Shown in pieces: positions 32,681 through 61,788 of a DNA stretch of 64,000 nucleotides. The notes under the pieces are model-generated. The model was given only the letters and a program-made list of their open reading frames with translations. It did no database searches and was not told where the DNA came from. The translations under genes and the position numbers were made by a program. The stretch is from an uncultured Alphaproteobacteria bacterium (lineage in GTDB: Bacteria > Pseudomonadota > Alphaproteobacteria > SP197). Position 1 is the stretch's first letter. Every line of letters begins with the position of its first letter. The stretch spans positions 3,258 through 67,257 of the forward strand of contig CALIUG010000072.1 of assembly GCA_938048755.1 (NCBI GenBank), read 5' to 3'.

Positions 32681-32794
32681 GGAAATGAAGCCTTCGAGGA
32701 TGAATGGGCAGCATACAACATGACAAGAGACCGAAGCGCCACCCTCGAAATCGATTGCCGCGTGTGCGCTGCACGGAGCCGCGCAAGAATGTTG

Positions 32795-38001: not shown

Positions 38002-38053
38002 GCCCCATGATCGCCGCGTGACCGCGTTGCTGCTTTGACCCAGCGCAATCCCT

Positions 38054-45900: not shown

Positions 45901-46741
45901 CGCCGTGGCGGCGCTGGATGAAGATGACGCCATAAATCCGCTGGCCGCGCGGGTGCGTGGTGAGGCTGCGCGCGCCGCCGATGCGGGTGAGGACAGTGCA
46001 GAGGCCGCCCGACGTGCCGCCACCCGTGTCTTCGGCTCCAAACCCGGCGCCTATGGCGCGGGCCTGCAGGCCCTGATCGATGAAGGCGGCTGGGATCATG
46101 CCGATGATCTGGGCCGGGCCTATGTCGCCTGGAGCGGGTATGCCTATGGCGCAGGCACCGAAGGCAGGGCTGCCCATGACCTGTTCGAGACCCGTCTCTC
46201 CAAGATCGACGCGGTGGTCCACAACCAGGACAACCGCGAACACGACCTGCTCGACTCAGATGACTATTACCAGTTCGAGGGCGGCATCACGGCAGCGGTC
46301 AGGAAGGCGTCAGGCAAGCAGCCGGCGGTCTATCACAACGATCATTCCCGCCCCGACAACCCGACCGTGCGCACGCTGACCGAAGAGATTGCCCGGGTCG
46401 TGCGTGCGCGTGTGGTGAACCCCAAGTGGATCGCCGGTGTCATGCGCCACGGCTACAAAGGCGCGTTCGAGATGGCGGCCACGGTCGATTACCTGTTCGG
46501 CTTTGCCGCCTCGGCACGGTGTGTGGCCAACCATCATTTCGATGCGGTGTTCGATGCCTATCTGGGCGACCCGGAAGTCCGGGCGTTCCTGGAAGAGAGC
46601 AACCCGCATGCCTTACAGGACATTGCTGCCCGCCTGGCAGAGGCGCAGGCGCGGGGTTTGTGGAATCCCAGGCGCAACAGCACAGCGCCCTTGCTGGAAC
46701 AGCTGATTCGAAGAGAACCAAACGAGGAGAAGGTGGCATGA
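42983..46741 (+). CDS. cobN: cobaltochelatase subunit CobN
   Basis: 1252 aa with CobN/Mg-chelatase H-type architecture. Lies between cobW and cobO. Confidence 0.9.
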   Translation: MHLLAAQPGTVSDGTEAIDLGQTPGEIVVLSAADTELALLSDAAALQGEDAPSLRLASTMALSHNLSVDTYVEAMVATARVVVVRLLGGAAYWRYGTDEVAAAARANGVHLALLPGDDKEDGELRRLSTVGDDDYDRLWAYLIHGGARNAGNFLRHAACLAGRPDEADLPETLPRAGCYWPGRGDVALDEIATLWKPDRPVAAIVFYRALVQASDVAPIDALVAALDEQGLNALPLYSQSLKEQAGAAFVEEALGLHGPAVIVNCTGFALASPGAERGPTPFDGADCPILQAVLSGGTHDAWNEGMRGMAPRDIAMNVALPEVDGRILTRAISFKSARKWDERTQTNVVRHEPVADRVMWTARLAAAWARLRNTAVSERRVALVMANYPNKDARIGNGVGLDTPASAARILHTLDSAGYDVSGVPKNGTDLIATLLAGPTNDLTQRAWKRSDVTLSLDLYHERFAALPEAVREAMTERWGAPETDPHVAEGAFQLAVHRWGNVAIGVQPARGYNIDPKATYHDPDLVPPHGYLAFYMWLQRDFGSHALVHLGKHGNLEWLPGKALALSEACFPEVAFAPLPHLYPFIVNDPGEGTQAKRRTAAVIVDHLTPPLARAETYGDLRDLEALVDEYFEASHTDPRRLPILSRDILELCASTGLDQDCGIGAGDDENEKLSKLDGYLCELKEMQIRDGLHVFGEAPVRGLETSLLVALTRVPRGDGSGGDASITRALAADLGLDVDPLDAEMAKPWTGARPDVLAGLSDDPWRTAGDTVERIELLASALMDGSLDCDPGWTATQAVLDAVSGHLRPAVSACGAHELAGLLTGLDGRFLEPGPSGAPSRGRPDVLPTGRNFYSVDTRSVPTPAAWRLGWTSASRLVERHAQDHGDWPKAVALSAWGTANMRTGGDDIAQALALMGVQPTWEPRSGRVTGFEVMPSGVLGRPRVDVTLRVSGFFRDAFPGLIDLVDSATRAVAALDEDDAINPLAARVRGEAARAADAGEDSAEAARRAATRVFGSKPGAYGAGLQALIDEGGWDHADDLGRAYVAWSGYAYGAGTEGRAAHDLFETRLSKIDAVVHNQDNREHDLLDSDDYYQFEGGITAAVRKASGKQPAVYHNDHSRPDNPTVRTLTEEIARVVRARVVNPKWIAGVMRHGYKGAFEMAATVDYLFGFAASARCVANHHFDAVFDAYLGDPEVRAFLEESNPHALQDIAARLAEAQARGLWNPRRNSTAPLLEQLIRREPNEEKVA

Positions 46742-47364
46742 GCGAGAACGAAAATGACGCACCGGTCGAGGTGAACGAGCGCCACCGCGAGAAGATGAAA
46801 AAGCGCAAGGCCGCGCGCGACAAGATGATGGCGGCCAAGACCGAAGAGCGCGGTCTCATCATCGTGCATACGGGCAAGGGCAAGGGTAAATCCTCGGCCG
46901 CCTGGGGCATGGCGCTGCGCTGCATCGGCCACGGTTTCAAGATCGGTGTCGTCCAGTTCATCAAGGGCCGCAGTGAGACCGGTGAGACCAAGCTGTTTGC
47001 CAAGTTCCCCGATCAGGTCACCCACAAGATCATGGGCGAAGGGTTCACCTGGGAAACCCAGGACCGTGAGCGCGACATCGCTGCGGCGACGGCTGCCTGG
47101 GAAGAGTCCAAGGCGCTGATGGCCGATCCCGAGATCCACATGGTGATCCTGGACGAACTCAACATCGCGCTGCGCTACGATTATGTCGATCTCGACGATG
47201 TACTCGACACCTTGTCGACCAAACGGGCGGATCTGCATGTCGTGATCACGGGACGCAATGCCAAGCCCGAGCTCATCGAGTTCGCCGATCTCGTGACCGA
47301 AATGACGCTGATCAAGCACCCGTTCCGTGAGGGCGTGCGCGGCCAGATCGGCGTGGAGTTCTGA
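46738..47364 (+). CDS. cobO: cob(I)yrinic acid a,c-diamide adenosyltransferase
   Basis: GLIIVHTGKGKGKSSAAWGMALR P-loop and family signature. ATGA overlap with cobN. Confidence 0.9.
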   Translation: MSENENDAPVEVNERHREKMKKRKAARDKMMAAKTEERGLIIVHTGKGKGKSSAAWGMALRCIGHGFKIGVVQFIKGRSETGETKLFAKFPDQVTHKIMGEGFTWETQDRERDIAAATAAWEESKALMADPEIHMVILDELNIALRYDYVDLDDVLDTLSTKRADLHVVITGRNAKPELIEFADLVTEMTLIKHPFREGVRGQIGVEF

Positions 47365-47366
47365 TC

Positions 47367-48050
47367 ATGAAAGCCGCGCATGGGGTGATCGCACTTCTGG
47401 TTGTTGTCCTCTGGCAGGCTCCCTCGGGTCCCGCCTTTGCTGATGGTGAGCAGGCTGTGGTCGAGGATGCGCATGTCACGGTTGCCGAACTTCTGGCTGA
47501 TCCCGATTTCTCCAACCTGCATGGCCTTCTGGCGCGCGCGCACGGTGTGGTGATCGTCCCGCAGCTCTTCAAGGCAGGCTTCATCATCGGTGGAGAAGCA
47601 GGACGCGCCGTCATTCTGGCGCGTGACCCCAGCAGCGGCGCTTGGAGCCATCCTGCCTTCATGGATATGGCGTCGGCCAGCATCGGTCTGCAGATCGGTG
47701 CTGCCGAAACCCAGCTGGTGCTGGTGATCATGACCCAGGCCGGTATGGAAGCCATGCTCTCGGACAAGATCGAAGTCGGTGCGGATGCTTCGGTTGCCGC
47801 GGGCCCGGTGGGTGCCGCAGCCAAGGCGGCGACGACCTCGACCGAGTTCAACGAGGACATCTATGCCTATGGTACCAGCGAAGGACTGTTCGCCGGGATC
47901 TCCGTAGAGGGTGCGATCCTGATTCCCGATGAGGATGCCAACCACAGCTATTACGGCGAGCCCGTCACGACCCGTGAAATCCTGCAGGGCGATGCCGTCT
48001 GGAACGCCCGGGCAGACGGCTTGCGGGAACTGCTGGAAAGCGTGATCTGA
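47367..48050 (+). CDS. SYLF (DUF500/Ysc84-like) lipid-binding domain protein with signal peptide
   Basis: Signal peptide and the [26 protein letters not shown] core. Embedded between cobO and cobQ on the same strand. Confidence 0.7.
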
Positions 48051-48054
48051 GCCG

Positions 48055-49530
48055 ATGGCAGCACCCGCGATCATGCTTCAGGGTACGGGTTCGGACGTCG
48101 GCAAGTCTTTGCTGGTGGCCGGTCTGGCGCGCGCGTGTACGCGGCGGGGGCTGAAGGTGCGCCCGTTCAAGCCCCAGAACATGTCGAACAATGCCGGTGT
48201 CACCTCCGACGGCGGCGAGATCGGGCGTGCACAGATGCTGCAGGCCCGTGCCTGTCATGTGGTGCCCAGCGTTCATATGAACCCGGTGCTGCTGAAGCCC
48301 CAATCGGAGAAGGGCGCCCAGGTTGTCGTCCAGGGCAAGGTGTTCGGCCAGTCCCAGGCGCGCGATTATCACAAGCTCAAGCCCCAGCTTCTGGCAAAGG
48401 TTCTGGAGAGTTTCGAGCTGCTTTCAAAGGAGGCCGATCTCGTCATCGTGGAGGGTGCGGGGTCCCCGGCAGAGGTCAATCTGCGGTCGGGCGACATCGC
48501 CAATATGGGGTTTGCTGAAGCGGCCGATCTGCCGGTTGTTCTGGTCGGTGACATCGATCGTGGCGGCGTCATCGCCAGCATCGTCGGGACCATGGCGCTG
48601 CTGGAGGAAGCAGAGCGCGCGCGTGTCTGCGCCTATGCCATCAACAAGTTTCGTGGCGATGTTTCGCTGTTCGACAGTGCCATCGACATTCTCAAAGATC
48701 GCACCGGCCTCGACTGCCTCGGCGTTGTGCCGCACATGGCTGCAGCGCGGCGTCTGCCTGCCGAAGACGCTGTCGCGCTGGACAGCCATGCTGCCATGGG
48801 GGGAGGCGGTGACGGCGCGATCCGTATCGCGGTGCCGCGGTTTGACCGCATTTCCAACTTCGATGACCTCGATCCCCTGGTGGCTGAGCCCGATGTTTCC
48901 GTCACCCTGGTTTCTCCGGGCGACCCGTTGCCCGGCAATGCTGATCTGATCGTGCTTCCCGGCAGCAAGAGCACCATGGGAGACCTGCGTGCCGTGAAAG
49001 CCAATGGCTGGGATATCGATCTTGCCGCCCATGTGCGTCGTGGCGGTTGGGTCCTTGGTCTGTGTGGCGGATACCAGATGCTGGGCAGGGAAGTCGCCGA
49101 CCCTGATGGCATCGAAGGACCTGCCGGCACCGAACCGGGGTTGGGTCTTTTGGACGTGGCGACCACGTTGGCGGGCGACAAGTCGCTGGTTTCGGTCAGC
49201 GGAACGGATCGGGCGACGGGTGCTGATGTTGCCGGCTATGAAATGCATATCGGTGTGACCCAGGGGCCGGATCGTGAACGTGCGATGATTGACCTGCCCG
49301 GTGGCCCCGATGGCGCGGTCAGTGCCGATGGCCGAGTCATGGGGAGTTACCTCCACGGCATCTTTGCCGCCGATGATTTCCGCCACCGCTTTCTCTCGCG
49401 CCTGCGGCAGCGTCAGTCCAGCGGCCTTGCCTTCGAGGCCGAGATCGAACGCGCCCTCGACGAAATTGCCGAGGGCCTGGAAATCTGTTTCGCGGTCGAT
49501 CGTTTCCTGGAGATTGCCCGTGAACGTTGA
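48055..49530 (+). CDS. cobQ: cobyric acid synthase
   Basis: N-terminal DTB-synthetase-like domain ([13 protein letters not shown]) plus a glutamine amidotransferase domain ([10 protein letters not shown]). 491 aa. Confidence 0.9.
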
Positions 49531-49663
49531 TGCACTTGAATTCTACTGCGTGTCATCCCGGCCGACCGCAGGGAGAGCCGGGGCCTCGACAGGGTGGTGC
49601 CGAACTCTCGAGGCCTCGGGTCAGCGCAGCCGTTGGCTGCTTGTCCGGGGTGACACCGAGATA

Positions 49664-50632
49664 TCAGCCAGCCCAGTTCAGGGCCAGGACCGAAAACACG
49701 CCCCAGATCACACAGGCGATGACATAAAGCTTCAGCGTGTTTTCGATATCACGCGGCGTGCAGCGGGCGCGTCCGTTGCCCATCCAGGCGTCGGTGATCA
49801 TCTCGCCGTGGTAGCTGCGCGGGCCGGCAATGGCGATGCCAAGCGCGCCGGCAAAGGCAGCTTCAGGCCAGCCGGCATTGGGCGATTTGTGGTTGCGCGC
49901 ATCGCGCAGCATCGCCTGCAAGGCACCCTTGGCATCCGCACCATTCATGGCGAGCGCAGCGGCGGTGACGACCAGCCCGCTCAGACGCGCCGGAATCAGA
50001 TTGAGCAGATCGTCGAAACGCGCCGAAGCCCAGCCGAAGGCAAGGTAACGTTCCGTCTTGTGGCCAATCATGCTGTCGAGGGTATTGACGGTCTTGTAGA
50101 TCAGCAGGCCCGGGAAACCAGCGACCAGATACCAGAAGATCGGCGCGACGACGCCGTCAGCGAAGTTCTCGGCGCAGCTTTCGATTGCCGCGCGGCAGAT
50201 GCCGTGTTCGTCCAGCGCATCGGGGTCGCGCCCCACGATCATGGAAACCGCGCGTCGCCCGCCTTCGATGCCATCCTGACGCAGGGCGACGGCAACCCGC
50301 TTGACGTGATCGAAGAGGTCGCGCTGGGCAACCAGCGAAAACACCAGGGCAGCTTCCAGAAGCCAGCCCCAGGTCGTCGCCTGGGTCAGCCAGGTCACCA
50401 GCGAACCAAAGGCGCCAGCCCCGGCGACCATCACGATCAGCAGCACGACGCCACGCCAGCGCCGGTTGGCCTGGTCGCGCTGGTTCGCGCGCCGATCCGC
50501 CCAGCCGATACACGCTCCCAAGATGGCAACTGGATGGGGAATCCGCGCCCAGAGCCAGCGTGGATCACCGATCAGCCCGTCCAGAATCAGGGCGGCGGCC
50601 AGGACGACCGCAGGAGCAATATCGAAAAGCAT
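49664..50632 (-). CDS. cbiB: adenosylcobinamide-phosphate synthase
   Basis: LIGDPRWLW...HP N-terminal signature of CbiB/CobD. Polytopic membrane protein. Start MLFDIAP. Confidence 0.85.
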   Translation of the reverse strand: MLFDIAPAVVLAAALILDGLIGDPRWLWARIPHPVAILGACIGWADRRANQRDQANRRWRGVVLLIVMVAGAGAFGSLVTWLTQATTWGWLLEAALVFSLVAQRDLFDHVKRVAVALRQDGIEGGRRAVSMIVGRDPDALDEHGICRAAIESCAENFADGVVAPIFWYLVAGFPGLLIYKTVNTLDSMIGHKTERYLAFGWASARFDDLLNLIPARLSGLVVTAAALAMNGADAKGALQAMLRDARNHKSPNAGWPEAAFAGALGIAIAGPRSYHGEMITDAWMGNGRARCTPRDIENTLKLYVIACVIWGVFSVLALNWAG

Positions 50633-50703
50633 GCGCAGAAGGTGGGGCCGCGCCACCCGAGCGTCAATCACGAACCCATGACCCATCAAGAAGGACAAGA
50701 ACA

Positions 50704-51738
50704 ATGAGCAAACTCGCCGTCATGTTGTGTGGCCACGGAAGCCGCGACGAAGGTGCGATCACCGAGTTCGGTGCCATCGCCGAAACCCTCAAGGGCCGGT
50801 TCGACTGGCCCATGGAGTACGGCTTCCTGGAATTTGCCACGCCGATCATCCGTGACGGCCTCGACAAGCTGCGTGACGGTGGTGCGACACAGATCCTGGC
50901 CGTGCCAGGCATGCTGTTTGCGGCAGGCCACGTGAAGAACGACGTGCCGAGCGTTCTCAACACCTATGCCGCGCAAAACGGAGTCGAGATCAAGTTCGGC
51001 AGGGATCTGGGCATCGATACCCGCATGGTGCGCGCGGCCGGTGAACGGGTGAAGGAAGCCATGGCGGCGGCCGATGCCGAACATGGTGTGGTGCCTCCCC
51101 ACGAGACCCTGCTGGTGACCGTGGGGCGCGGTGCATCGGATCCCGACGCAAACTCCAACGTCGCCAAGGTCTCGCGCATGTTGTGGGAAGGCCTGGGCTT
51201 CGGCTGGGGCGAAACGGCCTATTCCGGTGTGACGTTCCCGCTGGTCAAGCCTGCCCTGGAGCATGTCGTCAAGCTTGGCTTCAAGCGTGTGCTGGTGTTT
51301 CCGTACTTCCTGTTCACCGGGATTCTGGTGCGCCGGATCTATGATGCTACCGACGAAGTGGCCGCACAGCATCCCGACATCCAGTTCGTCAAGGCGGGTT
51401 ACCTCAACGATCATCCTCTGGTGGTCGATACCTTTGTCGACCGGGTGCACGAGATTCTCGAAGGCACGGGAAACATGAACTGCCAGGCCTGCAAGTACCG
51501 CGACCAGGTGCTGGGTTTCGAGGCGGAAGTCGGCCTGAAGCAGGAAAGCCATCATCACCATGTCGAGGGTATTGGCACCGGTGAGGGACACAGCCACGAT
51601 CATGATCACGAGCACGCCCATGACCATGCCCACGGGCACAGCCATGATCACGGGCACGGCCGCGACCATGCCGATGGCCACGGTCATCATCCCTACCCCC
51701 ATGCCGACCATCCGCTTGGTCCCAAGACGTTGAAGTAG
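50704..51738 (+). CDS. cbiX: sirohydrochlorin cobaltochelatase, long form (CbiXL) with [4Fe-4S] MxCxxC and a His-rich C-terminal tail
   Basis: Duplicated CbiX domains (LCGHGSRDEGA, TVGRGASDPDANS), NCQACKYR cluster and a C-terminal HDHDHEHAHDHAHGHSHDHGHGRDHADGHGHH tract. Confidence 0.8.
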   Translation: MSKLAVMLCGHGSRDEGAITEFGAIAETLKGRFDWPMEYGFLEFATPIIRDGLDKLRDGGATQILAVPGMLFAAGHVKNDVPSVLNTYAAQNGVEIKFGRDLGIDTRMVRAAGERVKEAMAAADAEHGVVPPHETLLVTVGRGASDPDANSNVAKVSRMLWEGLGFGWGETAYSGVTFPLVKPALEHVVKLGFKRVLVFPYFLFTGILVRRIYDATDEVAAQHPDIQFVKAGYLNDHPLVVDTFVDRVHEILEGTGNMNCQACKYRDQVLGFEAEVGLKQESHHHHVEGIGTGEGHSHDHDHEHAHDHAHGHSHDHGHGRDHADGHGHHPYPHADHPLGPKTLK

Positions 51739-51751
51739 GAGACCCCGGCGC

Positions 51752-53320
51752 GTGCCTCTCTTTGACGCTTACCTGATGGTCGACTGGAGTTCGGAGACGA
51801 AACCCAAGACCGGCAAGGATTCGATCTGGCTGGCGCTTGCTGAGCGCACGCCGGCCGGTCTGCGTCTGCATGCGCTGGAGAATCCCGCGACCCGTGCTGA
51901 GGCACGGGAACGTCTGGCAGACATGCTGGATGGCCTGATCCGGCGCAGGCGGCGGGTCCTGGTCGGTTTTGACTTTCCGTTTGGTTACTCCAGCGGCACG
52001 GCTTCTGCGCTGGGCCTCAAAGGTGCGCCGTGGCGCGCGACGTGGTCCGCGCTGTCGCAGGCCGTGGAAGATCGCCCGGACAATGCCAACAACCGATTCG
52101 AGGCAGCAGACGTTCTGAACCGCCGCATGGGGTTCCGCGAGGGGCCATTCTGGGGCCATCCGGTCGGGCGCAGCTATGCAAATCTGGAGATGACGCGGCC
52201 CGTCTATGACGGCGGCCTGGATGAAAAACGGGTCTGTGAAACCGTGATCTCCGGGCCCCAGTCGATCTGGAAACTGGCCGGTGTCGGTTCGGTAGGCGGC
52301 CAGGTGCTCACGGGTCTGCCGGTCGTCCATGCCCTGCGCCGTGACGCCAGACTGAAAAGCCATGCGCGGGTATGGCCGTTCGAAACCGGTCTGAAGCCCA
52401 TGACATCCGGTGCTCTCAAACAGCATCCGGTTGTGCTGGCCGAGATCTATCCCTCGCTGGTGTCACCGCGTTCGGCGAGCGGGCAGGTCAAGGATACACT
52501 GCAGGTCCAGGCCATCGCCGCATTCATGGCCAAGGCTGATGAGAACAGAACGCTGGGCCGGATGTTCGCGGGCATGAAGGGGTTGTCGGGCGACCAGAAG
52601 CGACGAATCGAGCGTGAAGAGGCCTGGATTCTGGGCGTCACTGAACCTGATACCCGGGCGGGCAAGATCGACATTGATGTCGACGCGGCGTTTCCCGGGC
52701 ATGGCCTTGCCTATCTCAACGACGGTCCAGCAATCTATGCTGAATCACGCCGCCTGATTGAGGCAAAGACCGACCTGTCGCGTCTGACGGACGATGAACG
52801 GGCTCTTGCCGTGCGTCTGATCCATACCTGCGGCATGACCGATATCGCCGATGATCTTGAGGTTTCCGGGGGTGCCGTCGCCAGGGGCCGCGAGGCTCTG
52901 ATCGCAGGCGCGCCGATTCTTTGTGATGTCGAGATGGTGGCTAAGGGCATCATCAAGCGCCGTCTGCCGGCATCCAATGCCATCGTCGCCAAGGTGGCCT
53001 CAAAGGCAGCGGTGGCACGGGCTGCGCGGCATCACACGACCCGGTCCTCGGCAGCGGTTGATCTGTGGGGTGACGCCATGGAGGGTGCCGTTGTCGCGGT
53101 CGGCAATGCGCCCACGGCCTTGTTCCGGGTTCTGGAAATCGTTGCAGCCGGTGGCCCGCGCCCGGCGCTTGTCATCGGCATGCCGGTGGGGTTTGTCGGA
53201 GCAGCGGAATCGAAACGCGCGCTCGCGAAGAGCGGACTCGACTTCGTGACCGTGCACGGGCGACGGGGCGGCAGCGCCATGGCTGCTGCTGGCGTCAACG
53301 CGCTGATGGGAGGAATCTGA
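51752..53320 (+). CDS. cobH: fusion protein: N-terminal roughly 300-aa uncharacterized domain (possibly DUF429/RNase-H-like) plus C-terminal precorrin-8X methylmutase
   Basis: The C-terminal approx 210 aa (from about 52680) match CobH/CbiC (LIHTCGMTD, ILCDVEMVA, GNAPTAL). The N-terminal MPLFDAYLMVDWSSETKPKTGKDSIWLA...VLVGFDFPFGY matches no cob enzyme known to me. Confidence 0.7.
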   Translation: MPLFDAYLMVDWSSETKPKTGKDSIWLALAERTPAGLRLHALENPATRAEARERLADMLDGLIRRRRRVLVGFDFPFGYSSGTASALGLKGAPWRATWSALSQAVEDRPDNANNRFEAADVLNRRMGFREGPFWGHPVGRSYANLEMTRPVYDGGLDEKRVCETVISGPQSIWKLAGVGSVGGQVLTGLPVVHALRRDARLKSHARVWPFETGLKPMTSGALKQHPVVLAEIYPSLVSPRSASGQVKDTLQVQAIAAFMAKADENRTLGRMFAGMKGLSGDQKRRIEREEAWILGVTEPDTRAGKIDIDVDAAFPGHGLAYLNDGPAIYAESRRLIEAKTDLSRLTDDERALAVRLIHTCGMTDIADDLEVSGGAVARGREALIAGAPILCDVEMVAKGIIKRRLPASNAIVAKVASKAAVARAARHHTTRSSAAVDLWGDAMEGAVVAVGNAPTALFRVLEIVAAGGPRPALVIGMPVGFVGAAESKRALAKSGLDFVTVHGRRGGSAMAAAGVNALMGGI

Positions 53321-54525
53321 TGACACCCTGGCTGTCTCTTGTGGGCCTTGGCGAGGATGGACTGGAAGGACTCTCCCCGGCTGCGCGCGAACTGGTTGAT
53401 CAGGCCGAGGTCGTGGTCGGTGGCACGCGCCATCTGGAACTGCTGGGCGAGACCCGGGCGCAGACACTGACCTGGGAAAGCCCGCTCAAGAAAACGGTCG
53501 AGCGCCTGGCTGAACTTCAGGGGCAGAAGGTCTGCGTGCTCGCCACCGGCGACCCCATGGCCTATGGCATCGGTGTCACCCTGATGCGCCGGTTCGGGCG
53601 CGAGGCCGTTTTTGTCCTTCCGGGAATCTCGGCCTTCACCCTGGCCTGTGCCCGGCTGGGCTGGCCGCTTGCCGAGACCGTGCAGCTCACGCTTCATGGT
53701 CGGCCGCTGGACCTGCTGAACGCCCATCTGATGCCGGGTCTGCGCCTGCTGATCCTGTCCGAAGATGCAACAACACCAGCCAAGGTCGCGATGCGGCTCA
53801 AGGAGGCCGGTTTCGGGCCAAGCGTGATGCATGTCCTGTGTCACATGGGTGGTCCCCGCGAACGCTGCCTCAGTGGAACGGCAGCGGAGGGAGTCGAGGG
53901 CGACGTGGACGATCTCAATACCCTGGCGATTGAACTGGTTACCGAGCCCGGCGCTGCCGTGCACGCGCGCACGCCAGGCCTGCCCGATGATGCCTTTGAG
54001 CACGATGGGCAGATGACCAAACGCGAGGTGCGCGCCGCAACCCTGGCAGCCCTTGCGCCGATGCCCGGTCAGTTGCTCTGGGATGTCGGCTCGGGCTGTG
54101 GTTCCGTCGCGATCGAATGGATGCGCGCGGCAGACCGGGCCTGCGCCATGGCCATCGAACGTCATGAAGGCCGGCGGGCCATGACCGCGCGCAATGCGGC
54201 AAACCTGGGTGTACCAACCCTGAAGCTTGTTGCCGGCAGCGCACCGGAAGCCCTGGAAGGCCTGGCCACGCCGGATGCGGTTTTTGTCGGCGGCGGCGTC
54301 GCCGGCGACGGTGTCGCACAGACCTGCTGGGATACCCTTGCGCCGGGCGGACGTCTGGTTGCCAATGCGGTCACGCTGGAAAGCGAGCATGCTCTTTTCC
54401 ATCTCCATGAACGTCTGGGCGGTGAACTTGTGCGTCTCTCGGTTGTACGGGCCGCACCGGTCGGCGGCCTGACGGGATGGCGCCCTCTCATGCCGGTAAC
54501 ACAATGGCGGATCATCAAATCATGA
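53320..54525 (+). CDS. cobL: precorrin-6Y C5,15-methyltransferase (decarboxylating), CbiE+CbiT fusion type
   Basis: N-terminal tetrapyrrole methylase domain and C-terminal class I SAM-methyltransferase domain (VGSGCGSVAIE). Confidence 0.85.
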   Translation: MTPWLSLVGLGEDGLEGLSPAARELVDQAEVVVGGTRHLELLGETRAQTLTWESPLKKTVERLAELQGQKVCVLATGDPMAYGIGVTLMRRFGREAVFVLPGISAFTLACARLGWPLAETVQLTLHGRPLDLLNAHLMPGLRLLILSEDATTPAKVAMRLKEAGFGPSVMHVLCHMGGPRERCLSGTAAEGVEGDVDDLNTLAIELVTEPGAAVHARTPGLPDDAFEHDGQMTKREVRAATLAALAPMPGQLLWDVGSGCGSVAIEWMRAADRACAMAIERHEGRRAMTARNAANLGVPTLKLVAGSAPEALEGLATPDAVFVGGGVAGDGVAQTCWDTLAPGGRLVANAVTLESEHALFHLHERLGGELVRLSVVRAAPVGGLTGWRPLMPVTQWRIIKS

Positions 54526-55229
54526 CCAAAGGAACCCTTTATGGTCTGGGTGTCGGTCCCGGCGATCCCGAGCTCATCACGCTGAAGGCCCATCGACTGC
54601 TGACCCATGCTCCCGTGCTTGCCTATCCGGCACCGGAACATGGTGACAGTCTGGCGCGGAGCATCGTGGCGTCGCATCTGAGCGGCGAGCAGACCGAGAT
54701 TGCGATCCGCATGCCGCTGGACCTGAACCGGTTTCCGGTCGAGGCCGTTTATGATCAGGCAGCGATCGACATTGCCGAACATCTGGATGCCGGACGGGAT
54801 GTTGCTGCGATCTGTGAAGGTGACCCGTTTTTCTATGGCAGCTTCATGTATCTCTTCGGCCGGCTGGCCGACCGGCATGAGGTCGTCGTGGTCCCCGGCG
54901 TCTCGTCACTCATGGCCTGCCCGGCCGCTGCCGGCGCGCCCCTTGCCGCGCGCGACGATGCCCTGCTGATTTGTCCGGGCATCATGGACGAAGCGGTCAT
55001 GCGCGAGCGTCTGGCGAATGTGGAAGCCGCTGTCGTCATCAAGGTCGGCCGTCACCTCGACAAGGTGCGCCGCGTGCTCACGGCGTTGGATCTTGTGGAG
55101 CATGCCCATTATGTCGAGCACGCCACCATGGCCGATCAGGTCGTATTGCCCTTTTCCGAAATCGATGCGGCAAAGGCGCCCTATTTTTCGATGGTGCTGA
55201 TCCATCGGCGTGGAGAGGCATGGCGATGA
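54525..55229 (+). CDS. cobI: precorrin-2 C20-methyltransferase
   Basis: LYGLGVGPGDPELITLKA signature. ATGA overlap with cobL. An alternative start at 54504 is possible. Confidence 0.85.
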   Translation, partial: TKGTLYGLGVGPGDPELITLKAHRLLTHAPVLAYPAPEHGDSLARSIVASHLSGEQTEIAIRMPLDLNRFPVEAVYDQAAIDIAEHLDAGRDVAAICEGDPFFYGSFMYLFGRLADRHEVVVVPGVSSLMACPAAAGAPLAARDDALLICPGIMDEAVMRERLANVEAAVVIKVGRHLDKVRRVLTALDLVEHAHYVEHATMADQVVLPFSEIDAAKAPYFSMVLIHRRGEAWR

Positions 55230-57037
55230 ATGTTCCAACAGGTGCTGCGGTTCTGTGTCTTGGTCCTTCGGGACTAGCTGCTGCGAACCGTCTGGTTGCT
55301 GCCCTGCCTGATGCCAGTCTTCATGGCTATGGGTCACGGGTGGAGGGCACCGATGTGGTGTTCGAGAACACCATGGACCATGTCGCAACGCTGTTTGCGG
55401 CAGGCATTCCGGTCGTGGGCGTTTGTGCCGCCGGCATTCTGATTCGTGCCGTGGCGCCCCTTCTTTCCGACAAGACGCGCGAAAGTGCCGTGGTCGCGGT
55501 GGCCGAGGATGGTGCCAGCGCCGTTCCGCTGCTGGGCGGTCATCATGGCGCCAACGCACTGGCCCGCGCCTGTGCCGGCGTGTTCGAGGGGCATGTCGCG
55601 GTCACGACCGCGGGTGACGTGCGCTTTGATGGCGCGCTGGATGACCCGCCGCCGGGCTGGCGCATCGCCAATCCTGAGATGGCAAAACCGGTGATGGCCG
55701 ATCTGCTGGCAGAAAAGCCGGTTGCGCTTTGCATAGAGGCTGGTGAAGCGGACTGGCTGCGCAACTCCGGCATGGCGTTTGGAGAAACGGGCGATCATGC
55801 CGTTGCGGTGACCGACCGTGCCCTGCGGCCCGATGGCCGGACGCTGGTCATGCATCCGCCGGTCCTGGCCCTGGGCGTGGGATGTGAACGTGACTGTGAG
55901 CCCGGTGAGCTGATCGCCCTGGTGCGCGAAACGCTCAAATCAGAGCGCCTTGCCGAAGGCGCGATTGCCTGTGTCGCCAGCATTGACCTGAAGGGTGATG
56001 AACCAGCCGTGCTGGCCGTTGCCAACATGCTGGGTGTTTCCCTGGTCCTATTCGATGCGCCAAGGCTGGAGGCCGAAGCGCCGCGCCTTGCCAATCCTTC
56101 CGATGTGGTGTTTGCCGAAGTCGGGTGCCATGGCGTCAGTGAGGGGTCCGCGTTGGCCGCGGCGGGCCAGGAGGGTTCGCTGGTCGTGCCCAAGAAGAAG
56201 TCACGGCGTGCCACATGTGCCGTTGCGCGCGCTGCCAAGGATATCGACGTCTCAACGACTGGCCGACGGCGTGGCCATCTTTCGCTGGTCGGTCTGGGTC
56301 CGGGCGATGCAGCCCTGCGCACGCCTGAAGCAAGCCGTGCCATTGCCGCGGCCAGCGATGTCGTGGGTTATGGTTATTATCTCGACCTTGCCGGTCCGTT
56401 GATGCGCGGCAAGGAACGTCATGATTTCGGCCTGGGCCAGGAGACGGAGCGATGCCGTTTCGCACTCGATCTGGCGGGTCAGGGCAGACAGGTGGCGTTG
56501 CTCTGTTCCGGCGATCCCGGCATCTATGCCATGGCCAGCCTGGTCTATGAGCTTCTTGATCTCGAGGACGCACAGCCCTGGCGCAGCGTCGGGATCGACG
56601 TCGTGCCGGGCGTTTCGGCCCTGCAGGTTGCTTCGGCGCGGGCCGGTGCGCCGTTCGGCCATGACTTCTGCGCCATCTCGCTTTCGGACCTGCTGACCCC
56701 ACGCGAGGTCATCATGCGCCGCGTGCGTGCAGCCGGTGAAGGCGACTTTGCCATTGCCTTCTACAATCCTGTCTCCATGCGCAGGCGCGATCAGCTGGCT
56801 GAGGCACGGACCATCCTGCTGGAACACCGGCCCGGCGATACGCCTGTCATGATCGGCCGCCTGTTGGGTCGTGAAGGCGAAGCCATGGCGCATACCACGC
56901 TTGCCGAGCTGGAAGTCGACGATGTCGACATGATGAGCGTGGTGCTGATCGGCTCCAGCACATCCCGGCGGATCAACCATCTCGGCCAGCCCAATGTTTA
57001 CACCCCGCGTGGTTACGCGAAGAAAAGAGAGACCTGA
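55226..57037 (+). CDS. cobJ: fusion: CbiG (N- and C-terminal/CobE-like domains) plus precorrin-3B C17-methyltransferase CobJ
   Basis: aa 1-340 carry CbiG_N (VVGVCAAGILIRAVAPLLSDK...LLGGHHGANALA) and a CobE-like module (LALGVGCER...ASIDLKGDEPAVLAVANMLGVSLVLF). From about 56265 the tetrapyrrole methylase GHLSLVGLGPGD...CSGDPGIY follows. ATGA overlap with cobI. Confidence 0.85.
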   Translation: MNVPTGAAVLCLGPSGLAAANRLVAALPDASLHGYGSRVEGTDVVFENTMDHVATLFAAGIPVVGVCAAGILIRAVAPLLSDKTRESAVVAVAEDGASAVPLLGGHHGANALARACAGVFEGHVAVTTAGDVRFDGALDDPPPGWRIANPEMAKPVMADLLAEKPVALCIEAGEADWLRNSGMAFGETGDHAVAVTDRALRPDGRTLVMHPPVLALGVGCERDCEPGELIALVRETLKSERLAEGAIACVASIDLKGDEPAVLAVANMLGVSLVLFDAPRLEAEAPRLANPSDVVFAEVGCHGVSEGSALAAAGQEGSLVVPKKKSRRATCAVARAAKDIDVSTTGRRRGHLSLVGLGPGDAALRTPEASRAIAAASDVVGYGYYLDLAGPLMRGKERHDFGLGQETERCRFALDLAGQGRQVALLCSGDPGIYAMASLVYELLDLEDAQPWRSVGIDVVPGVSALQVASARAGAPFGHDFCAISLSDLLTPREVIMRRVRAAGEGDFAIAFYNPVSMRRRDQLAEARTILLEHRPGDTPVMIGRLLGREGEAMAHTTLAELEVDDVDMMSVVLIGSSTSRRINHLGQPNVYTPRGYAKKRET

Positions 57038-57038
57038 C

Positions 57039-57809
57039 ATGACGGTTCATTTCATCGGAGCAGGGCCCGGCGCGCCCGACCTCATTACCGTGCGTGCGCT
57101 CAACCTGATCAAGGCCTGCCCGATCGTGCTGTATGCCGGCTCCCTGGTGCCCGAAGGCGTCATTGAACAGGCCGACCCCGCAGCGACGGTGATCGATACG
57201 GCACCGCTCCATCTCGACGAGATCATCGAGCTGATGCGTGAGGCCCACGAACGCGGACAGAATGTGGCGCGCGTCCATTCCGGCGACCCTTCGCTTTATG
57301 GCGCCATTGCCGAACAGATCCGCCGTCTGGACGACCTTGAAATCGACTATGACGTGACGCCGGGCGTGCCGGCCTTTGCCGCTGCGGCTGCTGCCCTGCA
57401 GACCGAGCTGACGCTGCCCGATGTCAGCCAGACCGTGATCCTGACGCGCACGGCCGTGCGTGCGACGGCGATGCCCGAAGGCGAAGACCTCACGACCCTG
57501 GGCAAGTCGGGCGCGACCCTGGCGATCCATCTCTCGGTCAACAACCTGGCCCGCGTCGTGCGCGAACTGGTCCCGCTTTATGGCGAGGATTGCCCCGTGG
57601 TCGTGGCCTATCGCGTGAGCTGGCCCGACCAGGCCTTCATCTCCGGCACGCTGGGCGATATCCGGTCCAAGGTGAAGGCTGCCGGGTTCACACGCACGGC
57701 ACTGATCCTGGTCGGTGAGGTCCTGGGCAATGCGAGTTTCCGTGACAGCCGCCTTTATGACGAGGCCCATCACCACGTCCTGCGGCCACGCAAGGTTGCC
57801 AGTGCCTGA
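57039..57809 (+). CDS. cobM: precorrin-4 C11-methyltransferase
   Basis: MTVHFIGAGPGAPDLITVRA and VHSGDPSLYGA signatures. Confidence 0.9.
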   Translation: MTVHFIGAGPGAPDLITVRALNLIKACPIVLYAGSLVPEGVIEQADPAATVIDTAPLHLDEIIELMREAHERGQNVARVHSGDPSLYGAIAEQIRRLDDLEIDYDVTPGVPAFAAAAAALQTELTLPDVSQTVILTRTAVRATAMPEGEDLTTLGKSGATLAIHLSVNNLARVVRELVPLYGEDCPVVVAYRVSWPDQAFISGTLGDIRSKVKAAGFTRTALILVGEVLGNASFRDSRLYDEAHHHVLRPRKVASA

Positions 57810-58124
57810 TCAGCCCTTGATCTGAACCATGCCGTCCAGGGTCCGGCATTCAAAAACCCTGATCGGGCGCGTCGCCGGTTTGCCGCAGGCCCGCCCGTCA
57901 CGGATGTCGAAACAGCCCTGGTGCAGCGGGCATTCGATGATGAAACCGTCGAAGTAGCCATCGACAAGGCTGGCGCCACCATGGCTGCAGCGTGCCGAGG
58001 TGACGCGGATACCGTCGGGGCCGTCATAGACGGCGAGCGGCTGACCCTTGTGCTGCGCTGGCGTGACGTCGCCGGGTTCAAGGTCGCCGACGGAGACCAG
58101 ATCAATCCACGCGCTCTCAGGCAT
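57810..58124 (-). CDS. Rieske-type [2Fe-2S] ferredoxin
   Basis: 104 aa. CSHGGASL...CPLHQGCF (CxH...CxxH). Overlaps the upstream desaturase gene by 8 nt on the same strand. Confidence 0.8.
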   Translation of the reverse strand: MPESAWIDLVSVGDLEPGDVTPAQHKGQPLAVYDGPDGIRVTSARCSHGGASLVDGYFDGFIIECPLHQGCFDIRDGRACGKPATRPIRVFECRTLDGMVQIKG

Positions 58125-59088
58125 CGGCGTTCACATGGGCGCCCAGGCGTTCGCGTGAACCCCGGATCTGTCCCAGCATGTCGCGATGGGCGGCAAGGTA
58201 GCCCCCGGGTTCGGCGTAGAGCTGGCCCTTCAGGCGTTCATGCAGCTTGGGCAGGGCATGGAAGGGAACAGAAGCGGCAAAGTGATGCTCGGCATGAAAG
58301 GACATGTTCCAGCAGAGATTGCGCCAGGGCCATGAGACCAGGCTGGTTCTGGTGTTGACGGTCATGTCCTTGGTATTGGGACGTCCGACATGTTCGGTCA
58401 TGCGGATGAACCGCATCACCGGCTCGCCCATGAACACAGGAAGGATCCAGAACCAGAGCGGCGCCCACCAGTTGAAGACGGGCATGGCAAGGGCCACGGC
58501 GATGTAAAGGGCCAGAAAGATGCGTGCTTCCAGGATCACCGCACCACGTTCTTCCTTCGGGATGAACCGTTTCTCGGTCGCGTTCAGACGTCCCAAGGCG
58601 TGAGCCACCAGTCCGGAGATCATCCCGCGCCAATAGGGTAGCGAGGTGATGTAGAGCAGGTGCCCGCCCACGGTGTCGGCGAGGGGAATGAGCTCGGGGT
58701 CGCGCCCCATGATCTGGGTGTGGGTATGGTGGTCGCAATGTTCCCAGCGGAAGTAGCGCGGCGGCACGGCAATCCAGAACCCGCACCATGTGGCAACAAC
58801 ATCATTCAGCCAGCGCGTACGAAAGGCGGTGAAGTGGATGCACTCATGCTGCAGGGAAAAATGGTGCACCATGATGATGCCGTGCAGGAACATGGCCGGG
58901 ATCAGCCACCAGGTGCCCAGGGCCAGCCAGACCAGCACGCCGGTTGTCGCTAGGGTGCCATACCACAGGGGCAGACGCATCAGGGCCGGCACATTGGAGC
59001 GGCGCATCAGCGCCTTGAGCTCGCGCCGGGTGATCGGCGCGTCAGCCCCCATGGCCTGACTTTGTGGTGTGAGAACCGTCTCGTTCAT
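58117..59088 (-). CDS. membrane fatty-acid-desaturase-family di-iron oxygenase
   Basis: Three His boxes (HECIH, HCDHHTH, HAEHH) and 4 predicted TM helices. 323 aa. Confidence 0.8.
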   Translation of the reverse strand: MNETVLTPQSQAMGADAPITRRELKALMRRSNVPALMRLPLWYGTLATTGVLVWLALGTWWLIPAMFLHGIIMVHHFSLQHECIHFTAFRTRWLNDVVATWCGFWIAVPPRYFRWEHCDHHTHTQIMGRDPELIPLADTVGGHLLYITSLPYWRGMISGLVAHALGRLNATEKRFIPKEERGAVILEARIFLALYIAVALAMPVFNWWAPLWFWILPVFMGEPVMRFIRMTEHVGRPNTKDMTVNTRTSLVSWPWRNLCWNMSFHAEHHFAASVPFHALPKLHERLKGQLYAEPGGYLAAHRDMLGQIRGSRERLGAHVNADA

Positions 59089-59179
59089 GGGGCAACCCTA
59101 GTCTCAAAATCAGAGGAGCGGAATATGCTCCGGCCCGATCTCGGGCTAGGGTGCCGACCTCACATCACACGAGAGCATC

Positions 59180-59638
59180 ATGACCGCAGAAGCGATCTAT
59201 TCCGTCGAAGTTCCAGAGAGCTGGACCGATCACTACGGCCACATGAACGAGGGCTACTACGTGGTTGCCGCCAGCGACGCTTCCTGGGCGTTTCAGGCAC
59301 TGCTGGGGATCGGCACCGACTATTACGATGCGACCGGGTTCGCCATGGTGACGGTGGAATCCCATGTCCGGTACCTCGATGAGGTGAACCGGGGTGAGGC
59401 CCTGACCTTTGACAGCCTGGTCCTGGGGCACGATGCCCGGAAGGTGCATATCGGCCACGTCATGCGTGTCGGCGACAAGGTCTGTGGCACCGTCGAATGC
59501 CTGTGGCTCCATCTCAATCACAAGGAAGGCGGGTTGGGCACCATGTCCGAAGCCGTGCAGGCCAAGCTGGCCGAGCACCTGGCCGATCCCGTTCCGGACT
59601 GGGCCAGCCGCCAGGTCGCCCTGAAGAAAAAGGCCTGA
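59180..59638 (+). CDS. acyl-CoA thioesterase (4HBT/YbgC hot-dog fold)
   Basis: WTDHYGHMNEGYYV N-terminal signature of the 4HBT family. Confidence 0.7.
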   Translation: MTAEAIYSVEVPESWTDHYGHMNEGYYVVAASDASWAFQALLGIGTDYYDATGFAMVTVESHVRYLDEVNRGEALTFDSLVLGHDARKVHIGHVMRVGDKVCGTVECLWLHLNHKEGGLGTMSEAVQAKLAEHLADPVPDWASRQVALKKKA

Positions 59639-59642
59639 TGTC

Positions 59643-60884
59643 ATGGCAAGAGCGAGCGACTTCATCGATCAGCAACGCCTGTGGGATCGTCACATGGCGA
59701 TTGCCAGGTTCGGCGAAACCGGCAACGGCGGCGTCAACCGTCAGGCACTGACGCCAGAAGACGGCATGGCGCGGGCAGCCCTGGCCGGATGGGCCGGGGA
59801 ACGCGGGTTTCGCCTGATCGCCGATGAAGCCGGGAATCTGTTCGTGCGCCGTGACGGCACCGATCACGATGCACCTGCCATACTTTCGGGCTCCCATCTC
59901 GATACCCAGCCGGCCGGCGGCAACTTTGATGGCATCTATGGCGTGCTGTCGGCGTTTGAAGTGCTCGAAGCGCTCGAGGATGGGGGGCTGGAGCACCGCC
60001 ACCCCATCGAGGCGGTTGTCTGGACCAACGAGGAAGGGTGCCGTTTCGCACCGGGTTGCACCGGCAGCCTGGTTTTTTCGGGCCAACACGAGATCGAGGA
60101 GTTTCTCGATGGTACCGCGCCAGACGGTGCGGTGCTGCGCGACGAGCTGGAACGCACGCTTGCCGCCACACCCGATGCCGAGCAGCGCAGGGGCGGCATT
60201 CCCATGGCCGGCTACATCGAAACCCATATCGAGCAGGGGCCCAGGCTGGAAAGCGAGGGGCTCACGATCGGCGCCGTCACGGGCATCCAGGGTGGCAGTT
60301 CGTTCGAGGTCACCGTCACCGGGATCGACGGTCATGCCGGAACCGTGCCGCTGTTGCAGCGGCGCGACGCCTTCCGCTCGGCCCATCAGATCATCGATGC
60401 GCTTCACCGGGATCTGGCAGACCCCACCGACACGGTGCGGTTTACGGTGGGCCGGTTTGAGACCTATCCGGGGTCGCCCAACACGATTCCGGGCAAGGTC
60501 ATTTTCACGATCGATTTCCGCCACCCAGATCAGGCGTTCTTCCGCGAAAAGGTCGACGGCATGGCTGCGTTCATTGCCGCCCATGCCGGCCCCTGTGATG
60601 TTGTGGTGCAGAAACGCCATGCCGGCGACCCGGCTGACTTCGACGAAAACGTGATTGCCCGCATCGAGCGCATCGCGGGCGAACTCGCGATTCCCGCCAT
60701 GCGTATGCCCTCGGGCGCCGATCACGACGCCAAGTACATGGTGCCGCTGGCCCCGACCGGCATGATCTTCGTGCCGTGCCTGAGCGGCATCAGCCACAAC
60801 GAAGACGAACGCGCGACCCCTGAGGACCTCGCCGCCGGCGCCCGCGTGCTGGCAGACGCCCTGCTGGAAATGGCGCGGGGCTGA
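59643..60884 (+). CDS. M20-family Zn amidohydrolase (N-carbamoyl-amino-acid hydrolase, allantoate amidohydrolase or beta-ureidopropionase type)
   Basis: SGSHLDTQPAGGNFDGIYGVLSAFEV and C-terminal HNEDE motifs of the AllC/carbamoylase clade. 413 aa. Confidence 0.8.
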   Translation: MARASDFIDQQRLWDRHMAIARFGETGNGGVNRQALTPEDGMARAALAGWAGERGFRLIADEAGNLFVRRDGTDHDAPAILSGSHLDTQPAGGNFDGIYGVLSAFEVLEALEDGGLEHRHPIEAVVWTNEEGCRFAPGCTGSLVFSGQHEIEEFLDGTAPDGAVLRDELERTLAATPDAEQRRGGIPMAGYIETHIEQGPRLESEGLTIGAVTGIQGGSSFEVTVTGIDGHAGTVPLLQRRDAFRSAHQIIDALHRDLADPTDTVRFTVGRFETYPGSPNTIPGKVIFTIDFRHPDQAFFREKVDGMAAFIAAHAGPCDVVVQKRHAGDPADFDENVIARIERIAGELAIPAMRMPSGADHDAKYMVPLAPTGMIFVPCLSGISHNEDERATPEDLAAGARVLADALLEMARG

Positions 60885-60907
60885 CACCCGGGAGCAAAAC
60901 AAAAGAA

Positions 60908-61116
60908 CTGTCGTCCTCCGGCTTGACCGGAGGACCCATGCACCGAACGAAGCCACACCCACGGTTCTGCGATTTGCCGCTATACAAGCCGGTCATAGAG
61001 ATCGTCCCAATCAGGATTGTTCTCTTCGACCGGCTGGTGCAGCGCCACCAAACATGACGTGGCGCTGTTGCCTGCAACACAGCATGGATCCTCCGGTCAA
61101 GCCGGAGGATGACAAG
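60908..61116. mobile_element. internally deleted, inverted copy of the GIY-YIG cassette: two 34-bp palindromic TIRs flanking only the last about 50 nt of a GIY-YIG ORF (minus strand)
   Basis: TIR ctgtcgtcctccggcttgaccggaggacccatgc at 60908-60941 and its inverse gcatggatcctccggtcaagccggaggatgacaag at 61082-61116. The internal minus-strand ...VEENNPDWDDLYDRLV* equals the C-terminus of the intact gene at 61422-61706. Confidence 0.75.
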
Positions 61117-61137
61117 TTGGGGGTGGGTCGCGGTGGC

Positions 61138-61305
61138 TCAACGCATACCTTCCTGCATCGCGGAGCCACTGTTGGTGGTCCAGGTCTGGTGGGTGGTGAA
61201 GGAACCTTCCTTGCCAGCTAGGGCTAAGACGATGGTGGCGATTTCGTCGGGCTGGGCGATACCCTGACGGAAATGATGCGGGGCCGATGCCTTAGGACAC
61301 CCTAT
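61138..61305 (-). pseudogene. 3' fragment of a second SDR gene (last about 50 codons with its own TGA stop)
   Basis: Minus-strand ...PDEIATIVLALAGKEGSFTTHQTWTTNSGSAMQEGMR* is about 70% nt-identical to the 3' end of the SDR at 61789-62532 (PDEIAAVALALAGKAGAFTTGQVWSVNGGSAMP*). Truncated at the TIR at 61311. Confidence 0.7.
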
Positions 61306-61310
61306 CAAAA

Positions 61311-61779
61311 CTGTCGTCCTCCGGCTTGACCGGAGGACCCATGCTGTATCCTCGAAGCCGTTTCACGCCACTCTGACAAGCTGGACCGGCACACCGGCAA
61401 GCGGCAGATTGTGCGTTAGCCATGGCCTACTTCGTCTACATTCTGGCCAGCCAGAAACGCGGAACACTCTATGTCGGCGTGACGAACGATATAGCCCGTC
61501 GCGCATGGGAACATCGCGAGGGAACTGTGTCGGGCTTCACCAGGCAGTATGGCGTGAAACGGCTTGTGATGGTGGAGACCTATGACGATGTGCGCGATGC
61601 GATCCAGCGCGAGAAACGCCTGAAACACTGGAACAGAGAATGGAAAATCGCACTGATCGAAGAGAACAATCCTGACTGGGATGACCTCTACGACCGTTTG
61701 GTTTAGCGCCATTGAACAAGGTGGGGTGCTGTTGCCAGCGATACAGCATGGGTCCTCCGGTCAAGCCGGAGGACGACAA
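61311..61779 (+). mobile_element. 469-bp cassette: small GIY-YIG nuclease gene bounded by 34-bp self-palindromic terminal inverted repeats (intact copy)
   Basis: TIR-L 61311-61344 (ctgtcgtcctccggcttgaccggaggacccatgc), TIR-R 61746-61779 (gcatgggtcctccggtcaagccggaggacgacaa). The same TIR recurs 7 times in the window. Confidence 0.7.
61422..61706 (+). CDS. GIY-YIG nuclease family protein (UPF0213/YhbQ-like), 94 aa
   Basis: MAYFVYILASQKRGTLYVGVTNDIARRAWEHREG: GIY...YVG motifs, and the conserved R and E of the GIY-YIG fold. Confidence 0.85.
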   Translation: MAYFVYILASQKRGTLYVGVTNDIARRAWEHREGTVSGFTRQYGVKRLVMVETYDDVRDAIQREKRLKHWNREWKIALIEENNPDWDDLYDRLV

Positions 61780-61788
61780 AGTGTGAGC

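Follow-up and report, generated by a model that had tools for sequence, protein, structure and literature searches.

A conserved pair of genes for a membrane histidine-box oxygenase and a Rieske ferredoxin, of the MocD/MocE kind, in an uncultured alphaproteobacterium

The 64-kb stretch of DNA analyzed here in its entirety (hereafter, the window) comes from an uncultured alphaproteobacterium, and toward its distal end two overlapping genes on the minus strand encode a histidine (His)-box protein of the fatty acid desaturase family and a small Rieske ferredoxin. The original prediction, made from the letters of this DNA, described these genes as translationally coupled and possibly a dedicated electron-transfer module, and its open reading frame (ORF) positions and 8-nt overlap are exactly as it reported them. 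The features of the pair are the following (aa, amino acids):

58117–59088, minus strand: FA_desaturase-family His-box protein, 323 aa (ORF list and PF00487)
57810–58124, minus strand: Rieske [2Fe-2S] ferredoxin, 104 aa (ORF list and PF00355)
58117–58124, minus strand: overlap of the oxygenase and ferredoxin genes, ATGCCTGA, 8 nt (read from the sequence)

The ATG of the Rieske gene (58124–58122) lies inside the 3′ end of the desaturase gene, whose stop codon occupies 58119–58117. The desaturase gene ends in GAT GCC TGA, and the Rieske ATG spans the GAT and GCC codons; no strong Shine-Dalgarno motif precedes this ATG in the sequence read. The analysis supports the interpretation of the 8-nt overlap as a translational-coupling junction, and of the two genes as a dedicated, coupled oxygenase-ferredoxin module.

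The product of 58117–59088 is, as judged from its sequence, an integral-membrane His-box oxygenase with a predicted di-iron center, and a distant paralogue of MocD. It matches the FA_desaturase family (PF00487) over residues 59–293 (E = 6.8e-39, 134.6 bits; cut-off 29.7) and contains three His boxes, H81ECIH85, H117CDHH121, and H265AEHH269, with the eight His ligands expected of the superfamily; all of these histidines are invariant in a 20-sequence family alignment. Hydropathy analysis places two hydrophobic hairpins at residues ∼39–77 and 185–220, and the AlphaFold2 model (predicted local distance difference test, pLDDT, 77.5; predicted template modeling score, pTM, 0.77) has long helices at residues 32–55, 62–77, 178–205, and 209–233, so that hydropathy and modeled helices together give an arrangement of four transmembrane helices in two hairpins. 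A Foldseek search with this model returned two significant matches in the Protein Data Bank (PDB), neither of which could be identified as desaturase-like, and the family profile had zero matches among PDB sequences. More than 1000 homologues of the oxygenase are present in a collection of metagenome and genome proteins. Among the curated NCBIfam models, the best match is GntB (NF041365), at 42.8 bits and below its cut-off of 380; no curated equivalog cut-off is reached, and there is no match to the AlkB family.

The 104-aa protein is a single-domain Rieske ferredoxin of the ∼100-aa type. It matches PF00355 (E = 3.3e-16, 59.4 bits; cut-off 20.3), and its cluster ligands, in the CxH...CxxH pattern, are C46-S-H48 and C65-P-L-H68. 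All of its PDB matches are small ferredoxin components of dioxygenases (NDO, CarAc, TodB, and BphF), the best at 43–72 bits. Its NCBIfam scores are similar across several families (AndAb, 74.9 bits; HcaC, 69 bits; MocE family, TIGR02377, 62.1 bits), and it misses the MocE cut-off of 136.15. This protein would serve as the soluble electron donor to the oxygenase.

Conservation of the pairing was assessed by a pattern scan of GTDB with one genome per species, which yielded 306 relatives of the oxygenase; the best 80 of these 306 were taken with 10-kb flanks (the loci carry L numbers where they are named individually), and Rieske homologues were located in them by tblastn with the window protein. 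In 77 of the 80 loci, the desaturase gene is directly followed on its own strand by a gene for a Rieske homologue; the other three have the Rieske gene ∼6.5 kb away within the same cluster. The carriers include genera of the Paracoccaceae and Roseobacter group (Ruegeria, Paracoccus, Albidovulum, and Salipiger), Rhizobiaceae, Hoeflea, Inquilinaceae, and Rhodospirillales-like metagenome-assembled genomes (MAGs), as well as the gammaproteobacteria Granulosicoccus, Halioglobus, and Marinobacter. The junction could be scored for 62 adjacent pairs and is mostly a 4-nt ATGA, 8-nt, or 11-nt overlap, or a gap of no more than 14 nt; the identities of oxygenase and ferredoxin co-vary (r = 0.77). In the reverse direction, four Rieske homologues (52–57% identity) were picked for long contigs only, blind to gene context, and all four directly follow a PF00487 gene. 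Fusion proteins of desaturase and Rieske domains are absent from the 120 best homologues of either protein. The pairing is far beyond chance, and together with the reverse test it bears out the dedicated, coupled two-gene module. The combination that would have told against the original prediction, a ferredoxin that groups with a dioxygenase encoded elsewhere and a pairing that relatives do not keep, is not what the comparison shows: the pairing is conserved in both directions.

One further locus bears on how the two genes are held together. In a Rhodospirillales MAG (GCA_014323865.1, locus L092, 7216–8103 and 8479–9580), the gene order of the window is kept, with cobM, the pair, and a thioesterase gene followed by an M20 gene, as it also is in L093. 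In L092, an in-frame deletion has fused the oxygenase, after its first ∼140 residues, to a C-terminal portion of the ferredoxin, and the fusion has other residues in place of both cluster cysteines. Its M20 gene is broken into two frames, whereas the cob cluster is intact. The locus has the look of a decayed module, but an assembly artefact of the MAG is possible; because the deletion fused both genes, the desaturase and Rieske genes appear to have decayed as a unit.

A membrane desaturase-family enzyme with a Rieske ferredoxin is an established and curated, if little-known, architecture. In the Moc system, MocD shares its His motifs with desaturases and with alkane and xylene hydroxylases, MocE is a Rieske-like protein, and MocF serves as the ferredoxin reductase; together they have been proposed to demethylate 3-O-methyl-scyllo-inosamine. 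The oxygenase matched 407 plasmid records by tblastn, led by Ruegeria conchae (57% identity) and followed by genes of Rhizobium, Sinorhizobium, Ensifer, and Burkholderia at 33–37%. In S. meliloti, R. leguminosarum, and B. cenocepacia (L082–L084), the order is a LacI gene and then genes for a desaturase-family protein, a ferredoxin annotated as "MocE family 2Fe-2S", and a flavin adenine dinucleotide (FAD)-dependent oxidoreductase; the Burkholderia operon also adjoins iolG and TIM-barrel/xylose-isomerase-like genes. The literature identifies the LacI-linked cluster on rhizobial plasmids as mocDEF (PMC3538637), and in rhizopine catabolism mocDEF is known as a "ferredoxin oxygenase complex" (Bahar et al., 1998, cited through PMC10107442, PMC5132102, and PMC3538637). 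The ferredoxin has a curated model of its own at NCBI, "MocE family 2Fe-2S ferredoxin". The original prediction had regarded a Rieske partner for a membrane desaturase as unusual, but the mocDEF operons already have it.

Both systems have in common a gene for a desaturase-family membrane His-box protein followed by one for a Rieske ferredoxin of ∼100 aa, and MocDEF itself is catabolic, with a soluble substrate; mocDEF-like operons are present in P. syringae as well as in Rhizobiaceae and Burkholderia. The window pair differs in belonging to a separate clade, its oxygenase and ferredoxin being only 35–37% and 34% identical, respectively, to their mocDEF-like relatives. It has no adjacent LacI, iol, or TIM-barrel genes; the neighbors of its clade are instead amino-acid-type transporters and Sox-like, Rieske oxygenase, MttB, and PhyH genes. 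Furthermore, a MocF-type reductase gene adjoins mocDE, whereas none lies beside the window pair: tblastn found no MocF-like reductase in the window, and matches in only two of the 80 loci. As the window lacks such a gene, its ferredoxin would have to be reduced by a flavoprotein encoded elsewhere. The window pair is of the MocD/MocE kind and not a new kind, and belongs to a clade of its own that is mostly marine, uncharacterised, and devoid of a linked reductase.

Other multicomponent or membrane-bound oxygenases offer partial parallels. GntB is the transmembrane L-arginine gamma-hydroxylase of guanitoxin biosynthesis (NF041365; bioRxiv 10.1101/2023.03.21.533663). Like the window oxygenase it belongs to the FA_desaturase superfamily, and it acts on a free, charged amino acid, but it is biosynthetic and cyanobacterial, and the window protein scores far under the cut-off of its model. 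We know of no dedicated Rieske partner for GntB. AlkB and XylM share the His-box di-iron superfamily and a multicomponent electron supply via a small iron-sulfur protein, which in their case is rubredoxin with rubredoxin reductase, as opposed to the Rieske [2Fe-2S] ferredoxin of the window pair; no alkane or alcohol-dehydrogenase genes are present around the pair. Elsewhere in the superfamily the partner differs: rubredoxin turned up only near a Cupriavidus relative (34% identity), together with an FAD reductase. The Rieske ferredoxin T4moC donates electrons to the soluble di-iron toluene-4-monooxygenase (PMC4200526) and is comparable in that a Rieske-type ferredoxin feeds a di-iron hydroxylase and not a Rieske dioxygenase, but the hydroxylase in that system is a soluble, carboxylate-bridged four-helix bundle with a fold unrelated to the membrane His-box family.

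The gene neighborhoods of the relatives point to the metabolism of imported nitrogen compounds. ORFs were called and clustered in the 80 loci and representatives were annotated; the counts below refer to the 75 loci with a called desaturase gene and to a distance of 10 kb.

Polar-amino-acid-type ATP-binding cassette (ABC) importer (two permeases, SBP_bac_3 binding protein, ATPase): 39–47 loci
VanA-like Rieske oxygenase: 29 loci
TIGR01926 "peroxidase-related" AhpD-like protein: 26 loci
XRE-cupin regulator: 25 loci
Protein of 360 aa without matches in Pfam, NCBIfam, or the PDB: 25 loci
MATE exporter: 21 loci
SoxB/D/A/G-like heterotetrameric oxidase: 10–18 loci
LysR regulator: 16 loci
PhyH hydroxylase: 9 loci
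MttB-like methyltransferase: 7 loci
Creatininase-family protein: 6 loci

In 65 of the 80 loci, at least one gene for an amino-acid ABC importer, a Rieske/VanA-like oxygenase, or a SoxBDAG-like, MttB-like, or creatininase-family protein occurs within 10 kb. The transporter genes of Granulosicoccus, Paracoccus, and several metagenomic contigs are directly followed, on the same strand, by those for the desaturase and the Rieske protein; elsewhere, the gene for the 360-aa protein or for the XRE-cupin regulator precedes the oxygenase gene, and the annotated island of Ruegeria conchae has the full set of neighbors. The linked SBP_bac_3 binding protein is closest to PDB entry 9e2b (unpublished; a literature search on 9E2B found nothing) and then to the AncCDT-1/3k4u group, which we take to be cationic-amino-acid binders. 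The gene for the ∼360-aa protein lies immediately upstream of the desaturase gene, on the same strand, in many Roseobacter-group loci (10762–11847 in L081, K3740_RS22655, and 24 others), and this protein probably acts in one pathway with the desaturase-Rieske pair. In L096 (1–2903), N-methylglutamate-synthase-like genes (GATase, GXGXG, and Glu_synthase) lie beside an XRE-cupin regulator gene that is divergent from the pair, an arrangement which hints that the pathway may release methylamine.

We consider it probable, at roughly 60%, that the pair constitutes the catalytic core of a MocD/MocE-type multicomponent oxygenase whose substrate is most likely a water-soluble, imported nitrogen compound and not a lipid. 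The case for a soluble nitrogen substrate draws on the gene neighborhoods of the family and on two analogies, the O-demethylation of 3-O-methyl-scyllo-inosamine proposed for MocDEF and the gamma-hydroxylation of free L-arginine by GntB. In such a system, the eight conserved histidines of the 323-aa integral-membrane enzyme would bind a di-iron center, and the 104-aa Rieske ferredoxin, produced by coupled translation from the same mRNA, would pass single electrons to this center, having itself been reduced by an NAD(P)H-dependent flavoprotein whose gene lies elsewhere in the genome. Once reduced, the di-iron site would activate O2 and hydroxylate a C–H bond of the substrate, for which an N-methylated or cationic amino-acid or betaine-type compound is a candidate. 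The reaction would be a hydroxylation or an oxidative demethylation, the product of which may feed downstream amine catabolism.

Several observations weigh against this assignment. The amino-acid ABC transporter is absent from the window and from its closest subclade (L001–L016), in which the pair is a two-gene operon, often alone among housekeeping genes, with a family-5 binding protein, an enolase-superfamily gene, and a Rieske oxygenase as neighbors, or else, as in the window, placed between cob genes and a thioesterase-M20 group; the substrate class for the window gene therefore rests on homologues of 55–62% identity. The ferredoxin reductase is not beside the pair in the window or in 78 of the 80 loci, which leaves the electron chain incomplete on paper, and in about half of the loci there is a Rieske oxygenase that could share the ferredoxin. 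PF00487 consists mostly of lipid enzymes, and a thioesterase gene adjoins the window pair. Finally, our literature searches found no paper on any member of the oxygenase clade, nothing that pairs "fatty acid desaturase" with "Rieske ferredoxin", and nothing that ties the family to betaine, sarcosine oxidase, or Ruegeria.

A more specific proposal, which we hold tentatively and at somewhat less than even odds, is that the pair acts as the entry oxygenase of an undescribed catabolic pathway for an abundant marine solute of the N-methylated or cationic amino-acid type, with its ferredoxin charged by a housekeeping reductase. Candidate solutes would be a betaine, a methylated basic amino acid, or a guanidino compound, and the enzyme would carry out the hydroxylation or demethylation of this water-soluble substrate at the membrane.

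On the other side of the oxygenase gene, the pair is divergent from two genes that the original prediction named as a thioesterase and an M20 amidohydrolase, and Pfam and NCBIfam confirm both:

59089–59179: divergent intergenic region, 91 bp, with short inverted repeats; presumed promoter/5′ untranslated region
59180–59638, plus strand: 4HBT_2 thioesterase (Pfam/NCBIfam)
59643–60884, plus strand: M20 hydantoinase/carbamoylase-type amidase (Pfam/NCBIfam)

Among the loci examined, the thioesterase-M20 group adjoins the desaturase gene only in L001–L003 and in the decayed L092. In three other loci, the thioesterase gene is 4–5 kb away, near BHMT-like and MttB-like genes. The genome of L004 carries a thioesterase-M20-MFS-SDR-SDR group elsewhere (L088), without a desaturase gene; because the group occurs in this form, the thioesterase and M20 proteins are rejected as functional partners of the pair and treated as neighbors only. 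In NCBIfam, the thioesterase is similar to the C-terminal domain of carnitine 3-dehydrogenase, a likeness that fits a betaine or acyl-CoA theme, yet provides no tie between the thioesterase and the oxygenase. Between the M20 and SDR genes of the window there are ∼890 bp (60885–61788) with a 94-aa ORF for a GIY-YIG nuclease (61422–61706), whereas the M20 and SDR genes of L001 are only 13 bp apart, so that this segment looks like the recent insertion of a small GIY-YIG element. At ∼7 kb from its thioesterase-M20 genes, locus L088, from an uncultured alphaproteobacterial assembly, also has a gene call (15640–16459) of 1272 residues that matches Cas13a in Pfam.

The three inverted repeats reported in the original prediction are present in 59089–59179, but they are no good evidence for the dedicated regulator site proposed from them. 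Against 2000 dinucleotide shuffles, the count of repeats with 6-nt arms has P ∼0.03 and the longest perfect arm, 7 nt, has P ∼0.15. The repeats are not conserved in L001–L003, and two of the three are disrupted in L001, the oxygenase of which is 93% identical. On these grounds, weak statistics and lack of conservation, the repeats were rejected as a sign of a dedicated operator. One of the repeats is also flagged by a terminator-like scan on the minus strand, and a promoter scan of the region gave no match to the sigma-70 consensus.

The original prediction had proposed a lipid, carotenoid, or alkyl-chain substrate, with the enzyme as a desaturase or hydroxylase that uses a Rieske ferredoxin in place of cytochrome b5, rubredoxin, or plant-type ferredoxin. 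We regard this as unlikely. Membership in PF00487 is in keeping with such a substrate, as are the acyl-CoA-type thioesterase encoded by the divergent neighbor and the frequent isolation of the pair among housekeeping genes in the closest subclade, while the similarity to the desaturases DesA and DesB (NF052548/NF052549) is weak, at 27.5 and 37.7 bits, far under their 500-bit cut-offs. The context lends the proposal no support: no lipid-biosynthetic, acyl carrier protein, acyltransferase, or carotenoid (crt) genes were seen in the 80 neighborhoods, in which solute importers and genes for the catabolism of methylated amines and amino acids dominate. The nearest relative of known function, MocD, has a soluble cyclitol as its substrate. 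The thioesterase, for its part, travels with M20, MFS, and SDR genes independently of the desaturase and is akin to the thioesterase domain of carnitine dehydrogenase. A Ralstonia relative does lie beside an acyl carrier protein gene, but it is only 26% identical and has no Rieske gene annotated alongside.

It is less probable still that the ferredoxin mainly serves other enzymes, namely the soluble Rieske oxygenases or P450 of the same islands or the orphan Rieske oxygenases of the window (33–36.7 kb), and that its link to the desaturase gene is one of co-regulation only. By sequence, MocE and the dioxygenase ferredoxins are equally close to the ferredoxin, the Rieske gene of L052 is nearer to a P450 gene than to the desaturase gene, and a Rieske oxygenase gene occurs within 10 kb in 31 of the 60 full-length loci. 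The other 29 have no Rieske oxygenase nearby, but keep the pair in every case; the overlapping stop and start codons persist across bacterial classes, the mocDEF operons contain no other oxygenase, and in L092 the desaturase and Rieske genes decayed jointly. The two Rieske oxygenases of the window (33078–34214, plus strand; 35669–36724, minus strand) consist of the alpha subunit only and have no ferredoxin or reductase gene nearby. They are flanked by a NUDIX gene and by genes for an amino-acid permease (36784–38106) and a gamma-glutamyltranspeptidase (31073–32827). In principle, these enzymes could borrow the ferredoxin encoded 21 kb away, but VanA-like and alpha-only Rieske oxygenases, as class IA systems, normally draw their electrons straight from a reductase.

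The gene downstream of the pair is cobM, in convergent orientation and last in a cobalamin cluster (41937–57809) that carries the aerobic-route markers CobW and CobN along with a CbiG-CobJ fusion (54971–57037); no CobG was seen in this stretch. The cluster also encodes a 522-aa protein (51752–53320) with CbiC as its C-terminal half and an N-terminal portion of 327 aa without a Pfam match. On plasmid pRlX1 of R. leguminosarum (L083, 4984–10561), the mocDEF-like operon likewise sits at the end of a cob cluster (cobG-cobM), with cobM two genes away; the arrangement recalls the window even though the two desaturase clades are only ∼36% identical, and is probably a coincidence. A role of the pair in cobalamin biosynthesis, such as an O2-dependent replacement of CobG/CobZ, could be read from this adjacency (which recurs in L001–L003 and L092), from the R. 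leguminosarum arrangement, and from the lack of CobG, but is extremely improbable and was rejected on the basis of distribution and of L092, given that cob genes are lacking around the pair in 76 of the 80 loci, the pair and cobM converge and are not co-transcribed, L092 keeps an intact cob cluster beside a pseudogene of the pair, and the R. leguminosarum plasmid already carries cobG.

For the window itself, the result is mainly corrective: the pairing of desaturase and Rieske genes is genuine, of a known type, and probably not lipid-related. More broadly, annotation of the two products as a "fatty acid desaturase family protein" and a "non-heme iron oxygenase ferredoxin subunit" hides one conserved oxygenase, which is detectable in ∼306 species-representative genomes and has more than 1000 protein clusters in metagenomes, mostly from the marine Roseobacter group, Rhodospirillales-like bacteria, and Granulosicoccus. 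Identification of the substrate would give a function to an island with many demethylases, sarcosine-oxidase-like enzymes, and solute importers that also includes the 360-aa protein and the TIGR01926 peroxidase-related protein, and would add a second or third membrane His-box enzyme that acts on a soluble metabolite. If the pair does prove to be the entry oxygenase for an abundant marine solute, the membrane "fatty-acid desaturase" enzymes would be extended into the mainstream of marine organic-nitrogen cycling.

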